In this document: positions 5,576 to 62,216 of the stretch, piece by piece | Layout: every line of letters starts with the position of its first letter | How positions within the stretch are numbered: position 1 is the stretch's first letter | Source: Candidatus Eiseniibacteriota bacterium | GTDB taxonomy: Bacteria > Eisenbacteria > RBG-16-71-46 | Assembly (NCBI GenBank): GCA_963717935.1 | Contig: CAVQXP010000004.1 | Span: forward strand, 1,504,001 to 1,568,000 | DNA length: 64,000 nt | Reading direction: 5' to 3' | Translations under genes and position numbers: made by a program | The notes under the pieces: generated by a model | What the model was told of the DNA's origin: nothing | The model's database searches: none | The model's input: only the letters and a program-made list of their open reading frames with translations

Positions 5576-6910
5576 CTACATCTTGCGACGGCTGCGTCGG
5601 TCGCCGGCGTTGATCTTCTTGCGCCGGCCATGGTCGGCCCCATCCGTTGCTCCGCTCACGACCCGCGCGGCCGGGATGCGAACGGACGACGCCCCGCCCC
5701 GGTGCGGCCCTGAAGAGCGGCCGGTGCCGTGGGTGCGCGAGGTGTGCGAGTGCCCGCCTCGATCGGACGGCTCCACCACCGACCGACGCTTGTAATCGAA
5801 GCCATCGAGGGTCACGCGTGGCACCCGGATGCCGAGGAAGTGCTCGATCGCGGCCACCTCCTCGTGCTCCTCGGGGCTCGCCAGCGTGAACGCGTCGCCC
5901 GTGGCGTCCATGCGCCCGGTGCGACCGATGCGGTGGACGTAGTCCTCGGGCGTGCGGGGCACGTCGTAGTTGATGACGTGCGTGATGTCGTCCACGTCGA
6001 TGCCGCGCGAGGCGATGTCGGTGGCGACCAGCACCCCGACCCGGCCGCGCTTGAAGTCGCTGAGAGCCCGCTCGCGCTGGCCCTGGCTGCGGTCGCCGTG
6101 GATGACCGCCACGTCGCGGCCACGATTGCGCAACTGACGCGTCAACCGGTCGGCGCCGTGCTTGGTGCGAGTGAAGACGAGCACGCTGTGCTCCGGCGAG
6201 CGGCTCAGGATCTCCTCCAGCAGCGCCGGCTTGAGGTGCCGCGGCACGGGATAGAACGCCTGCTCGATGCCGGCGGCGGGGCGCGAGGGCGGCGCCAGGT
6301 CGAGCCGCTTCGGGTTGCGGAGCGCGTCCTTGGCCACGCGGTTGAGTTCCGGCGGCATGGTGGCGGAGAACATCAGCGTCTGCCGGTCCCTGGGCAGGAG
6401 CGCCAGGATGCGCTGGAGGTCGGGCGCGAAGCCCATGTCCACCATGCGGTCGGCCTCGTCCAGGACGAGCACCTCGACCTCCTCGAGGCTCACGCTGTGC
6501 CGTCCGTGCAGATCGAGGAGCCTGCCGGGGGTGGCGACCAGGAGCTCCACGCCCTCACGGCGCAGCAGGCGTTCCTGGGGGCCGATGGGCACGCCGCCGT
6601 AGACGGCGCCGACCCGCACCCCGGTGAAGCGCGCGTAGTCGCGCCCGCAGGCATCGACCTGCGCGGCCAGTTCGCGGGTTGGGACGAGCACCAGCGCGCG
6701 CAGCGCGCGGGGCCCTTCGAGCAGACGCACCAGGATGGGGAGCAGGAACGCGGCGGTCTTGCCGCTGCCGGTCTGTGCGGCGGCGACCAGGTCGTGTCCG
6801 GGAAGGATCAGGGGGATGGCCCGACGCTGGATCGGGGTGGGCTCGGCGTACCCGGCAGCGCGCACGCTCCGGGTGATGGGCTCAGGCAGCCCCAGTGATG
6901 CGAAAGGCAT
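5576..6910 (-). CDS. rhlE: DEAD-box ATP-dependent RNA helicase (RhlE-like)
   Basis: Q motif PTPIQ, AQTGSGKT, PTRELA, TPGRLLD, DEADRM, SAT, HRIGRTGR; basic C-terminal tail; AAGGAG RBS. Confidence 0.92.
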   Translation of the reverse strand: MPFASLGLPEPITRSVRAAGYAEPTPIQRRAIPLILPGHDLVAAAQTGSGKTAAFLLPILVRLLEGPRALRALVLVPTRELAAQVDACGRDYARFTGVRVGAVYGGVPIGPQERLLRREGVELLVATPGRLLDLHGRHSVSLEEVEVLVLDEADRMVDMGFAPDLQRILALLPRDRQTLMFSATMPPELNRVAKDALRNPKRLDLAPPSRPAAGIEQAFYPVPRHLKPALLEEILSRSPEHSVLVFTRTKHGADRLTRQLRNRGRDVAVIHGDRSQGQRERALSDFKRGRVGVLVATDIASRGIDVDDITHVINYDVPRTPEDYVHRIGRTGRMDATGDAFTLASPEEHEEVAAIEHFLGIRVPRVTLDGFDYKRRSVVEPSDRGGHSHTSRTHGTGRSSGPHRGGASSVRIPAARVVSGATDGADHGRRKKINAGDRRSRRKM

Positions 6911-7016
6911 TCGGTCTCCTTGAAGCGGTGGTGAAACGAGTGTCTACGAGACGGTGCGTCACGCGCGGCCCGTCGCTGAGCACTCGATGGCTCCAAGCGG
7001 GCCTGATGGCGGGCGA

Positions 7017-7148
7017 ATCACGCCGGGGGGCGGACGGCCACGGTGGCCGGGCCCTCGAAGCAGGGGGGTGGGCTATAAGCAAAAACCGCCAAGAGATGTC
7101 CTTGGCGGAATCGAACGCTGACAGCACATCCACAAGCAACCCAAGACG
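7017..7148 (-). promoter_or_regulatory. Conserved structured 5' leader of the helicase gene (paralog of the csp leader at 61649-61781), containing a terminator-like hairpin
   Basis: Aligns by eye with 61649-61781; hairpin CCGCCAAGG-acatc-TCTTGGCGG followed by TTTTT; second hairpin CGGCCA-ccg-TGGCCG. Confidence 0.8.
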
Positions 7149-7153
7149 AAGGC

Positions 7154-7182
7154 AGTATCGGCACTCCGGTGGCGAAACGCAA
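7154..7182 (-). promoter_or_regulatory. Putative sigma70 promoter for the helicase leader
   Basis: TTGCGT-N17-GATACT on the minus strand, homologous to the csp promoter. Confidence 0.6.
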
Positions 7183-7548
7183 GCGACATCGACGCGAGGC
7201 CCGTAACGTGTTGGGGGGGCACGCTGCCGCCCCCCAGGCCGGCAGACTGGCAATCCCCGTGGCAACCGGGCAAGATGGGGCCCATGGCCCATCGGGCTGT
7301 GCGGAGGCGGTTCCGGTCCGGCGGGCGATGTCGAGGGAGCGTGCTTCTCGGGTCTCGGACTTGCCGGGCGCATCCGGCCGCTGGTCCGCCCGGCGACCCC
7401 CTGATGGAGAGGAGTCTCCCGTGCCGCTGAACAGAGCAGCGATCGCCGCGATCCTTTGGGTCCAGGCCGGCCACGGGTGCCCGGGTGTGGGCGAGTCCCG
7501 CCTGCCCGGGCCGGGCGAGCCGGTGCAGGTCGAGAGCGGTTGCGCGCG

Positions 7549-8484
7549 ATGAAGACGAACCTCAGGGACCGCTCGGTGCTGCCGCGCTACGCCTGGCTCT
7601 CGATCGCCGCGGCGGTCGTGACCATCGCTCTGAAGGCCGGCGCCTACTTCCTCACGGGGTCGGTCGGCCTGCTCTCCGACGCGCTCGAGTCCTTCGTCAA
7701 TCTCGCCGGGGCGATCATGGCGCTGACCATGCTGACCATCGCCAGCCGGCCGGCCGACGAGGACCACCCCTACGGCCACAGCAAGGCGGAGTACTTCTCC
7801 AGCGGGGTCGAGGGCTCGCTCATCATGGTCGCCGCCATCGGCATCGCCGTGGCGGCGGTCGAGCGGCTCCTCCATCCGAGGATCCTGGAGCAGGTCGGTC
7901 TCGGGCTGGGTATCTCGGTCATCGCCTCACTCGTGAACCTGGGAGTCGCGCTGGTCCTGCTGCGGGCCTCGAAGCACTACGACTCGATCACGCTCAAGGC
8001 CAACGCGCAGCACCTGCTGACCGACGTCTGGACCTCGGTCGGCGTGGTGGTCGGCGTGGGCGCCGTGGCGCTGACCGGCTGGCAGTGGCTCGATCCGGGG
8101 GTGGCGCTGCTGGTGGCCGCCAACATCGTCTGGACGGGCGTGCGGATCGTCCGCGACTCGGTGCTCGGGTTGATGGACACCGCCATGGTGCCCGAGGAGC
8201 AGGCCGCCGTTCAGGCCGCGCTGCAGCCCCACCTGCGGGACGGCGTGCAGTCCCACGCGTTGCTCACGCGTAAGGCGGGCGCGCAGCGCTTCGTCTCCCT
8301 GCACGTGCTCGTGCCGGGCGCCTGGACGGTCCAGCAAGGCCACGACCTGGTGGAGCGTATCGAGGCCGACATCCGCCAGGCGGTCCGCAACGTCACGGTG
8401 CTGACGCACCTGGAGTCGCTCGACGACCCCGCGTCCTGGGACGACGTGACCCTGGACCGCTCCGGCGGGCCCGCGGCGAAGTAG
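7549..8484 (+). CDS. Cation diffusion facilitator family transporter (FieF-like)
   Basis: [36 protein letters not shown], cytoplasmic dimerisation domain with H..V...H and THLE. Confidence 0.92.
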
Positions 8485-60604: not shown

Positions 60605-61507
60605 TCATCCCAGGTACGCGCCCAGCCCGCCGCGCAGCGCGAGCGCGAGTGACAGCGCCAGCGCCAGCGCGCAGAGGGCCCCGAGCACCTGGACCGCGAG
60701 GCCGGGCCGCGGGCCGCCGAGGCGCGCGCTCAGCGGGACCACCGCGCCGATCGCCGCGCCGCTGACCAGACCTGCGGCGTGGGCGACGTTGTCCGTCCCG
60801 AGCCGCGTGAAGCCCGACACCAGACCCTGCCCGAGCAGGAAGAGGAGTGCCGCGCCGAGCGCCCGGGCACGCCCGGGGGCGAGCCGGTGACGCAGGCGGA
60901 ACGCGCCGACGAGCAGGGCTCCCCCGAGCGCGAAGATCGCGCCCGAGGCGCCGACGCTCAGGCTCAGCCCCGGGCCGTGCTGAGAGGCCCGCCACAGCAG
61001 GCTGCCCAGCGAGGCCGCGGTGCCGCCGAGCGCGAACACGATCCAGAAGGCCCAGCGCGTGAAGATGCGCTCGACCGCCGGGCCGAAGATCAGCATGCTC
61101 GTGGCGTTGAAGAAGACGTGTGCGGCCCCCGCGTGCACGAACGTCGAGGCCAGCAGCCGCCAGGCGGTGTCGAGCGGCGTGAGTCCGGTGGCGTTCGCGC
61201 CCCAGAGAAGATAGGCGGTCGTGTCGCCGATCTCGTGCCGGGCCGCCAGCAGGGCGAAGATCGCGGCCCACGCGAACAGATGCAGGCCGGTGCCCCAGGG
61301 AGGCACGTCGCCCACGGCCGACCACAACTCGACCGGCGGCAGCTCATCCGGGTCGGGGGGCAGGAAGCCCGCGCTCTCGAATCCGGCAGACCCGTACCCG
61401 GCGGGCTCGAGGGGATCACGGGGATCGGTCTCCACGCGGCGCACTCTGCGCCCAGGCGCGGAGGCGGGCAAGCCGGGCGCAGGTCGCGCCCGTGGCGCCT
61501 GATTCAC
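60605..61507 (-). CDS. Rhomboid family intramembrane serine protease
   Basis: WRLL...F.H....H..FN, VGASGAIF, AH..G...G. Confidence 0.88.
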   Translation of the reverse strand: MNQAPRARPAPGLPASAPGRRVRRVETDPRDPLEPAGYGSAGFESAGFLPPDPDELPPVELWSAVGDVPPWGTGLHLFAWAAIFALLAARHEIGDTTAYLLWGANATGLTPLDTAWRLLASTFVHAGAAHVFFNATSMLIFGPAVERIFTRWAFWIVFALGGTAASLGSLLWRASQHGPGLSLSVGASGAIFALGGALLVGAFRLRHRLAPGRARALGAALLFLLGQGLVSGFTRLGTDNVAHAAGLVSGAAIGAVVPLSARLGGPRPGLAVQVLGALCALALALSLALALRGGLGAYLG

Positions 61508-61614
61508 CGAGGAGGGGGGCGCATGTGGTGGCCGTGAGGGTGGGGGGCGTGCGAGCTAAGATGTTGTGCGGCAGGTAGGTAGGCCTGCAACCCGCCTGCC
61601 GGACCACGTTCTGG

Positions 61615-61643
61615 TTGCCTTCCGGCACCGCATGGCGCATAGT
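61615..61643 (+). promoter_or_regulatory. Putative sigma70 promoter of csp
   Basis: TTGCCT-N17-CATAGT; homologous to 7154-7182. Confidence 0.65.
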
Positions 61644-61648
61644 CACCG

Positions 61649-61781
61649 CGTCTTCGGTTGATTGGGATGTGGGTCAGACGTTTCGATTCCGCCAGGGACA
61701 AAAACCCTGGCGTTTCTGTTAGCCCGCGTCCCGTCATCTGGAGTACCGGTCACTGTGACCGGCCGTCGCCGCCACGTGAAT
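61649..61781 (+). promoter_or_regulatory. Conserved structured 5' leader of csp (paralog of the helicase leader)
   Basis: Hairpin CGCCAGGG-acaaaaa-CCCTGGCG followed by TTTCTGTT; hairpin CCGGTCA-ctg-TGACCGG; aligns with 7017-7148 minus strand. Confidence 0.8.
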
Positions 61782-61828
61782 GGGCGGCAAAGAACAGGGT
61801 CCTCGGACCCGGCATCAAGGAGTTTCAA

Positions 61829-62029
61829 GTGGCTCGTGGCACGGTGAAGTGGTTCAACGAAGCGAAGGGGTTCGGATTCATCTCCCAGGAGGGTGGCGAG
61901 GACGTGTTCGTGCACTTCTCGGCCATCAGCGGCGACGGTTTCAAGACGCTCGCCGAGGGTGAGGCGCTGGAGTTCGACGTCACGCGGGGCCCGAAGGGCC
62001 TGCAGGCGGCGAACGTCCGCAAAGTCTAG
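61829..62029 (+). CDS. Cold-shock protein (CspA family)
   Basis: GTVKWFN..KGFGFI (RNP1), DVFVHFSAI (RNP2), GPKG.QA.NV; GTG start after AAGGAG. Confidence 0.97.
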
Positions 62030-62057
62030 TCCGCTCCGGGTACCACTTCACGCCAGC

Positions 62058-62085
62058 GAGGCGGCGTCCGTCAGGACGCCGCCTC
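62058..62085 (+). terminator. Hairpin downstream of csp
   Basis: GAGGCGGCGTCC-gtca-GGACGCCGCCTC, perfect 12-bp stem. Confidence 0.6.
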
Positions 62086-62216
62086 AGGCGTTTCAGGGCC
62101 GGGAGCCCGGCCTGCGCCTTTCGGCGCCTTCGTCGTGTTATTCTGGCGGACGCCTTCGGCGCGCAACACGTGAAACGAGCGAAAGCCGCGGACCAGGAAC
62201 CGACCCGGAGCCGACG

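Follow-up and report, generated by a model that had tools for sequence, protein, structure and literature searches.

A conserved 5' leader shared by cold-shock and DEAD-box helicase genes of Candidatus Eisenbacteria as a candidate transcription attenuator

Why should a DEAD-box RNA helicase gene and a cold-shock protein (csp) gene, encoded on opposite strands and far apart, be preceded by closely similar leaders? The question is raised by a stretch of 64,000 nucleotides (nt) of a Candidatus Eiseniibacteriota bacterium (assembly GCA_963717935.1, contig CAVQXP010000004.1, positions 1,504,001 to 1,568,000), hereafter the window. A preceding reading of its letters (the sequence-only reading) had proposed that both genes carry an undescribed, structured cis-regulatory RNA. 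The answer that we favour, and consider probable though far from settled, is that both stretches are copies of a lineage-specific 5' leader that acts as a transcription attenuator for a small cold-adaptation regulon. The putative regulon would include csp paralogs, the DEAD-box RNA helicase and, in relatives, a membrane enzyme of the FA-hydroxylase family, where the term 'cold-shock' derives from the identity of the genes. The leader would probably switch these genes on and off together. To our knowledge, the way in which cold-shock genes are induced outside the model bacteria is largely unknown, and Candidatus Eisenbacteria are known here only from metagenome-assembled genomes.

The two leaders align with 76% identity over 88 nt (blastn against the 3.0-Mb genome, E = 7e-7). 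The similarity runs past hairpin 2 into a third hairpin, and thus beyond the alignment made in the sequence-only reading. The elements follow each other in the same order in both leaders and are listed below with their positions in the window.

Helicase leader and gene
7182-6911, minus: DEAD-box helicase leader, with promoter, box, P2, terminator and further hairpins
7182..7177 and 7159..7154, minus: promoter, -35 TTGCGT, 17-nt spacer, -10 GATACT (sequence and homolog conservation)
7147..7139, minus: 5' box as DNA, GTCTTGGGT, 6 nt after the -10
7137..7147, minus: 5' box as RNA, GUCUUGGGU(UG), predicted RNA +1..+11 and 5' strand of the proposed antiterminator P1
7113..7131, minus: P2, GGAUGU (7131..7126) with GCGUUC (7118..7113), 81% of cells paired in 146 distinct sequences
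7108..7086, minus: terminator (hairpin 1), CCGCCAAGG-ACATC-TCTTGGCGG, then TTTTT to 7081 (terminator scan)
7085..7081, minus: U-tract behind the terminator stem of 9 bp, CCGCCAAGG/UCUUGGCGG, with loop ACAUC (scan and family covariation)
7108..7098, minus: proposed 3' strand of P1, formed by the terminator 5' arm and loop bases
7035..7049, minus: hairpin 2, CGGCCA-CCG-UGGCCG (sequence and RNAalifold)
7012..7024, minus: hairpin 3-like GGCG-UGAUU-CGCC, read from the sequence without statistics, its loop related to the CGUGAAU loop of the csp leader
6921..6916, minus: Shine-Dalgarno AAGGAG
6910 through 5576, minus: coding sequence from ATG (open reading frame list)

csp leader and gene
61615-61828, plus: csp leader, element order as in the helicase leader
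61615..61643, plus: promoter, -35 TTGCCT at 61615, 17-nt spacer, -10 CATAGT at 61638..61643 (sequence and homolog conservation)
61650..61658, plus: 5' box as DNA, GTCTTCGGT
61650..61660, plus: 5' box as RNA, GUCUUCGGU(UG), 6 nt after the -10
61665..61683, plus: P2, GGAUGU with ACGUUU
61690..61712, plus: terminator (hairpin 1), CGCCAGGG-ACAAAAA-CCCTGGCG, tail TTTCTGTT to 61720 (terminator scan)
61689..61720, plus: the same terminator as RNA, CGCCAGGG-ACAAAAA-CCCUGGCG followed by UUUCUGUU
61689..61699, plus: proposed 3' strand of P1
61746..61762, plus: hairpin 2, CGGTCA/TGACCG (fold)
61768..61788, plus: hairpin 3, GCCGCC..GGCGGC (fold)
61797..61810, plus: hairpin 4, GGGUC-CUCG-GACCC (fold)
61817..61822, plus: Shine-Dalgarno AAGGAG
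61829 to 62029, plus: coding sequence from GTG, 66 aa

The identity of both genes is clear from their Pfam domains: the 444-aa helicase matches DEAD (E = 8e-49) and Helicase_C (E = 3.5e-34), and the csp product matches CSD (E = 1e-28). Everything that the sequence-only reading had described was recovered on closer inspection. Re-reading of both strands returned the two promoters (TTGCGT-17 nt-GATACT on the minus and TTGCCT-17 nt-CATAGT on the plus strand) with CGTCTT 5 nt later; hairpin 1 with its U-tract was reported by the terminator scan in both leaders; and TCAAGGAG does precede both start codons (ATG 6910, GTG 61829). The claim that the RNA is undescribed also held, as no family of Rfam 15 reached its gathering score anywhere in the 64-kb window. 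At E <= 10 only chance-level viral and miRNA models appeared on either leader, none of them on the motif, and the cspA thermoregulator (RF01766) matched neither. Literature searches gave no description of the leader motif, and the one search made for papers naming Eisenbacteria together with cold shock returned none; cold, csp and helicase are all absent from Naville and Gautheret 2010 (PMC2965389).

A functional indication came from the genes behind the leader. The other leader-length blastn matches in the own genome (74-86% identity) all lie upstream of further csp genes. Two sites lie beyond the window, each in front of a 66-aa csp gene: C4:1616417, with 86% identity to the csp leader, and C4:1239328, with 74%; the genome thus holds two further csp paralogs with the full module, next to a fourth csp paralog with a degraded one. 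A covariance model built from the four good own copies (R1) returned exactly five sites in this genome, namely the four csp genes and the helicase gene. When R1 was applied to the own genome and 40 relatives (E <= 0.01), 81 sites were obtained in 31 of the 41 genomes (family f1 22/24, f2 1/3, f3 7/10, three other families 0/3); the two sites of the unpublished genome G026, which is counted in these and the following genome tallies only, were dropped, so that 79 of the 81 were analysed. In an even sample of the phylum, R1 (E <= 0.001) was found in 56 of 151 genomes, and a second model (R2), limited to the attenuator from box to U-tract, in 57 of the 151 Candidatus Eisenbacteria genomes at E <= 1e-6 (f1 45/59, f3 6/6, f2 1/3, f10 4/32, 13 other families 0/50). 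Within Candidatus Eisenbacteria the module is mainly present in one order, where the absences apply to the genomes searched, many of which are incomplete.

The first gene downstream of the 79 sites encodes a Csp in 74 cases (two of these calls are based on contigs that end after 23-27 codons) and a DEAD-box helicase in four (the own genome, G004, G011 and G033); in the last, G017, the module is followed by a 205-aa gene of the FA-hydroxylase family and then by the helicase. A search of the relatives with R2 for a wider regulon added 13 sites (seven csp, one helicase in G030, one contig end and four weak ones) and no further gene class. The four weak matches (L168, L171, L173 and L174; E 2e-5 to 1e-2) have neither a box nor a promoter and resemble ordinary terminators. 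For validation we took all 60 R2 matches from genomes that contributed to neither model: 56 are csp-first (one with csp then FA-hydroxylase, one with csp then helicase), three are FA-hydroxylase-first (two of them then helicase) and one is an orphan. In total, 138 of the 139 sites lie upstream of a csp, DEAD-box helicase or FA-hydroxylase-family gene. The bias towards gene function that the sequence-only reading requires is therefore real and not scatter, with 79 of 79 model sites and 59 of 60 independent sites in its favour, and the covariance-model search proposed at the time, run on the genome and its relatives, finds the module recurring before cold-shock-type genes. Helicase-linked copies occur in six of the searched genomes (directly in the own genome, G004, G011, G033 and G030, via the FA-hydroxylase in G017) and in further records. 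In the own genome, one and the same 5'-proximal element is thus found on both csp and DEAD-box helicase transcripts, as is characteristic of a cold box.

The 205-aa protein was assigned via Pfam FA_hydroxylase (PF04116), which matched the two tested orthologs with E = 9e-8 (above the curated cut-off) and E = 9e-7 (just below it), and the assignment, together with the place of the gene behind the module, suggests a cold-regulated lipid-modifying enzyme. No homolog was found in the own genome. It is a membrane protein with histidine boxes (e.g. L083:416-1033 and L122:419-1036), and its gene recurs behind the module in several genera, either alone, after csp or before the helicase (further loci are L085, L058, L063/L128, L031, L089, L192, L197, L204 and L227). 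In some relatives csp genes are found in tandem, separated by a few hundred bases, and a complete promoter-attenuator module precedes each of them (G024:C31, three at ~32.0, 35.2 and 41.2 kb; G019:C8 at 351445 and 351995; G011:C198 at 540 and 1193). The fourth csp paralog of the own genome (C4:2117726-2117799, minus; L008:1547-1621) has kept the ribosome-binding site along with hairpins 2-4, but carries a degraded 5' module, with box CCTGCCTTGGTCA, post-hairpin tail ACTTGTGTGT and no U-tract, and it scores E = 0.007 with R1 and E = 4e-7 with R2. This copy may have escaped attenuation.

The promoter call rests on conservation, because both promoters are below the threshold (9/12) of the sigma-70 scan, which reported neither. 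In 65 homologs anchored on the box, CTTGC (-36..-32) and xATAxT (-12..-7) occur at fixed spacing, 17 nt apart, and the -10 motif ends at a fixed distance of 6 nt before the box G. The box GUCUUCGGU itself is exact in 57 of the 79 homologs. Given the fixed distance to the -10, the box is predicted to form the first 9 nt of the transcript, and transcription would start at or next to GUCUUCGGU. The RNA-library contigs on 61500-62100 (85% likeness) were not used as evidence: they cover mostly the conserved csp coding part from other organisms. The libraries contain about 0.2 or less of the sampled words, the contigs come without starts, ends or strand, and DNA may be present. Contigs of run X3 cover the csp leader from bin 61647 on, 61500-61646 being uncovered in all runs, and a 91-nt contig of that run (61682-61774, 10 differences, 2 gaps) spans the terminator; these were likewise set aside.

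Between this promoter and the start codon, and on the same strand, both leaders carry an intrinsic terminator, i.e. a GC-rich stem-loop followed by a U-tract on the transcribed strand. In the helicase leader it is not the 3' terminator of another gene, since the upstream neighbour, a cation-efflux gene (7456..8484), is transcribed divergently. Counted from the predicted start of the RNA, the terminator is found at about 40-65 nt, and transcription would stop at the U-tract after about 65-75 nt. The terminator lies about 110-170 nt upstream of the ribosome-binding site, in a leader of about 180-240 nt. A hairpin of 7-11 bp through the conserved CCGCC arm is formed in 77 of the 79 copies (minimum-energy fold, local 36 nt), and 68 of these 77 have at least 6 U in the 9 nt after the stem. 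The attenuator architecture suggested in the sequence-only reading is therefore found in nearly all copies of the family.

The terminator is under purifying and compensatory selection, as can be seen from its covariation. In a MAFFT alignment of 147 copies (146 distinct), which was not fitted to any structure, its nine pairs are formed in 92.0% of the cells of the 146 distinct sequences; one pair occurs as GC in 67, AU in 45 and GU in 14 sequences, another as GC in 136 and AU in 6. The helix P2 (GGAUGU with RCGUUC), located inside P1 and compatible with both states discussed below, is paired in 81.0% of the cells, with changes on both sides in five of its six pairs (146 distinct sequences). 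For terminator and P2 together, 11 pairs have changed on both sides versus 7.4 in shuffles, where 4 of 500 shuffles reach 11, and at most 49.3% of the cells are paired when the partners are slid. Hairpin 2 is paired in 91.5% of the cells, and its middle pair occurs as UA 55, CG 13 and UG 10 (79 sequences, in an alignment fitted to the covariance model). The compensatory changes in hairpins 1 and 2 that had been read from two copies are thus part of a family-wide covariation, in line with the structural selection proposed there.

In addition to the terminator, the leader can form a second, mutually exclusive helix. RNAalifold on the four own copies chose this helix, P1, and not the terminator. 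In P1 the box (GUCUU.GGU.G) pairs with C.CCG.CCAGGGAC, which is the terminator 5' arm plus the first loop bases. P1 is paired in 86.1% of the cells of the 147-sequence alignment, and P1 and P2 together in 84.2%, versus at most 51.4% with the 3' partners slid. More specifically, the terminator fold leaves an A and a C of its loop unpaired in 57 and 61 of the 77 copies, yet these bases are conserved in 65 and 64 of the 79, respectively, and P1 pairs both of them with the box; wherever the arm can be either G or A, the facing base of the box is a U, which pairs with both (UG 79, UA 52). These patterns favour P1 as the explanation for the conserved loop bases. On the basis of conservation and complementarity, with little covariation, the two strands can pair into a putative antiterminator. 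When nascent RNA is folded without the 3' arm, 46 of the 79 copies have a minimum-energy structure that includes 7 or more of the 10 P1 pairs.

With either state enforced, the computed terminator state is on average (79 copies) ~10 kcal/mol more stable than the P1 state at 5, 15, 25, 37 and 45 C, and the P1 state wins in 4, 2, 0, 0 and 0 of the 79 copies at these temperatures. An equilibrium RNA thermometer is unsupported, as the two states differ in energy by almost the same amount over the whole range of 5 to 45 C. Any thermosensing must be kinetic, because the gap hardly changes with temperature. The computed energetics have the pattern of a kinetically controlled attenuator, in which a metastable antiterminator forms before the terminator, which is the ground state.

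The mechanism that we propose would work as follows. The transcript would begin at or next to the box, and the emerging box would pair with CCGCCAG(G/A)GAC to form P1, enclosing P2; the partner stretch would double as 5' arm and loop of the terminator. Once the 3' arm of the terminator has been made, the more stable terminator would displace P1, and transcription would stop at the U-tract after ~65-75 nt. Cold would prolong the metastable, G-U-rich P1, the polymerase would read through and the genes would be on; warmth would favour refolding into the terminator. Csp, once accumulated, would favour the terminator, either as RNA chaperone or by binding the single-stranded box, and the resulting shut-off would constitute a negative feedback. 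Cold is our preferred ON signal, since with P1 resolving more slowly the polymerase would get past the U-tract, and Csp our preferred OFF signal because of the CspB-like box and by analogy to the csp leaders of E. coli and to CspA of S. aureus. According to PMC1904285, B. subtilis CspB prefers 5'-GTCTTTG/T-3', which the box matches at 6 of 7 positions. In the E. coli cspA/B/G leaders, restructuring in the cold blocks Rho-dependent premature termination and Csp proteins restore it (Delaleau 2024, as cited in the review PMC12360218), and the same review lists the deaD leader as cold-antiterminated, with the exact mechanism undetermined there. In S. aureus, the OFF fold of the cspB/C leaders is favoured by CspA, possibly through binding to a U-rich loop (PMC8034633).

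Several observations weigh against this reading. Each promoter has only 7 of 12 matches to the E. coli consensus. For P1, nine pairs have changed on both sides, versus 7.5 in shuffles, and 92 of 500 shuffles reach nine, a count no higher than in shuffles because both strands are so conserved; furthermore, the outermost P1 pair is unpaired in 70 of the 146 sequences, and four GACUUCGGU-box variants come without a compensating change. The energy gap is nearly flat (10.7 kcal/mol at 5 C and 9.8 at 45 C). The control of the helicase by the module appears patchy, because only 11 of the 50 helicase-homolog loci carry it (DNA up to 1.2 kb upstream). Finally, the direction of the Csp effect is taken by analogy, and Csp proteins of E. 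coli reportedly act as antiterminators as well.

That last point leads to the rival explanation that survives best, although we consider it unlikely: the same attenuator with opposite logic. Here the terminator would be the default, and Csp (or the helicase) would melt it or hold its arms single-stranded, so that read-through rises with Csp and the 5' box serves as a loading site in a positive feed-forward induction. The greater stability of the terminator state by ~10 kcal/mol at all temperatures computed, the weak covariation of P1 and the resemblance of the box to the CspB preference would all fit this scheme, and CspA-family proteins of E. coli are reported to antiterminate at intrinsic terminators (Bae et al. 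2000). However, it would amount to a pure positive feedback without shut-off, it would leave the conserved box-pairing bases of the terminator loop unexplained if P1 is irrelevant, and it runs counter to the repression of paralog leaders by Csp proteins in E. coli and S. aureus (PMC12360218 and PMC8034633).

A more specific form of the attenuator may be put forward tentatively, as a possibility rather than an expectation. The leader would then be a dedicated sensor of free Csp, i.e. of RNA-chaperone capacity, and the box a specific high-affinity Csp site, the occupancy of which decides whether the antiterminator survives until the U-tract. If so, the decision would fall within roughly the last second of transcription up to the U-tract, and a single 75-nt module, placed before csp, helicase and lipid-modifying genes, would suffice to specify the entire cold-shock regulon of the phylum without a protein transcription factor.

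It seems improbable that the unit from promoter to terminator serves chiefly to produce a small RNA of ~70 nt (e.g. one that titrates Csp or acts by base-pairing), with only incidental read-through into csp and helicase. A promoter and a good terminator are present in every copy, and the orphan copy is followed by none of the three gene classes (csp, helicase, FA-hydroxylase) but by a radC-like gene in convergent orientation. Nevertheless, 138 of 139 sites are directly upstream of the three gene classes and in the same orientation, no other promoter is evident between terminator and gene, the leader hairpins downstream of the terminator are conserved, and the gene of the fourth own csp copy was kept although its U-tract was not. 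The orphan (L233, G107:C156:47109-47177, minus) has promoter, box, GGAUGUG and terminator and points into the 3' end of the radC-like gene; a relic, a gene for a small RNA and an antisense transcript are all conceivable.

A duplicated promoter and leader without regulated termination, in which hairpin 1 is a 5' stabilising stem or pause site and control is exerted on translation or mRNA stability via the downstream hairpins, as in cspA-type thermosensors, would fit the three more conserved hairpins before the ribosome-binding site of the csp leaders and the action of csp leaders elsewhere on translation or stability (PMC8034633), but we give it little credence, as a U-tract would be superfluous behind a stabilising stem, whereas 68 of 77 copies have at least 6 U in the 9 nt that follow, and the helicase leaders have the 5' module and hairpins 2-3 without the hairpin proximal to the ribosome-binding site. 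With respect to these downstream hairpins, the stems of hairpins 2-4 vary with compensation across the 74 csp leaders. Hairpin 2 is near-invariant in sequence (CCGGUCA..UGACCGG), as for a protein or RNase site, and the third hairpin has a CGUGAWU loop common to csp and helicase leaders (7012-7024 minus; 61768-61788 plus). A second box copy near the csp ribosome-binding site was rejected: the GUCUUCGG-like letters, seen in 26 of 74 csp leaders, belong to a covarying tetraloop hairpin (UUCG, CUCG and GCAA loops) and not to a conserved box.

How does the putative attenuator relate to known systems? In classical attenuators (T-box, trp, pyr) a mutually exclusive antiterminator and terminator share one strand, the terminator is thermodynamically favoured and the antiterminator forms earlier. 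The computed Eisenbacteria leader is alike in that P1 and terminator share a strand, the terminator is predicted to be the ground state and P1 would come earlier. In contrast, it has no ligand-binding domain, tRNA-binding platform or conserved leader peptide, and the 5' strand of its proposed antiterminator is the predicted very 5' end of the RNA. A leader peptide was indeed rejected: the frames that start at the conserved AUG of GGAUGU (52 of the 79 leaders, located by pattern) run from 2 codons to open-ended, and identical nucleotides are read in different frames in different copies, so that there is no conserved short open reading frame.

The cold box, reportedly described by Jiang 1996, Bae 1997 and Fang 1998 at the 5' end of the cspA-family and csdA/deaD mRNAs of E. 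coli, is said to be linked to Csp-dependent attenuation, through pausing or the titration of a repressor. By these accounts it is likewise a short conserved box at the extreme 5' end that csp and DEAD-box helicase transcripts have in common. Compared with that description, the Eisenbacteria box is set apart by its complementarity to a terminator arm. The cspA model of Rfam, which we take to span the cold-box part of the leader, did not match the Eisenbacteria leaders.

The Rho switches of cspA, cspB and cspG (and deaD) in E. coli and Salmonella likewise subject csp and DEAD-box helicase genes to premature termination in the leader, and they are the source of the logic proposed here, in which cold blocks termination and Csp restores it (both according to PMC12360218). 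Compared with the Rho switches as presented there, the Eisenbacteria leader has an intrinsic terminator (GC stem and U-tract) and a competing 5' strand instead of a Rut site. It bears no sequence relation to the E. coli csp leaders (no Rfam cspA match) and is shorter, about 180-240 nt. Alternative folds of csp leaders are also known from the cspA thermoregulator (RF01766) and from the cspB/cspC thermoswitches of S. aureus, where the leader is shifted into its OFF form by a Csp protein that may recognise a single-stranded, U-rich motif (PMC8034633). Those switches act on access to the ribosome-binding site, whereas the terminator of the Eisenbacteria leader lies far upstream of it.

The novelty consequently lies in motif and mechanism and not in the principle, because a leader box shared by csp and helicase is known from E. 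coli, together with leader termination for both classes of genes. New are the motif itself, the combination of an intrinsic terminator and a proposed antiterminator strand at the 5' end, the membership of a lipid-modifying enzyme in the putative regulon, and the lineage. Through the motif, RNA chaperones would be joined with an RNA helicase and a membrane-lipid enzyme in a single regulon, and it suggests that the control of leader termination may be a general principle of the cold-shock response, by Rho in E. coli and by an intrinsic terminator elsewhere. Moreover, promoter, box and terminator make up a compact and testable unit of 75 nt, the motif is a candidate for a new Rfam family, and it could mark cold-response genes for annotation in Eisenbacteria genomes.

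Two minor features of the leaders and their surroundings may be added. The conserved GUUCGAUUCC just before the terminator arm (7109-7118 minus; 61680-61690 plus) resembles a tRNA T-loop; a tRNA-like element was rejected, as ARAGORN finds nothing in 6800-7400 and the flanks of GUUCGAUUCC form no T-stem. A hairpin with only a chance-level match to a viral frameshift model (E = 1.3), GGGGGG-11 nt-CCCCCC, is located upstream of the helicase promoter in the divergent intergenic region (7206-7235, minus).

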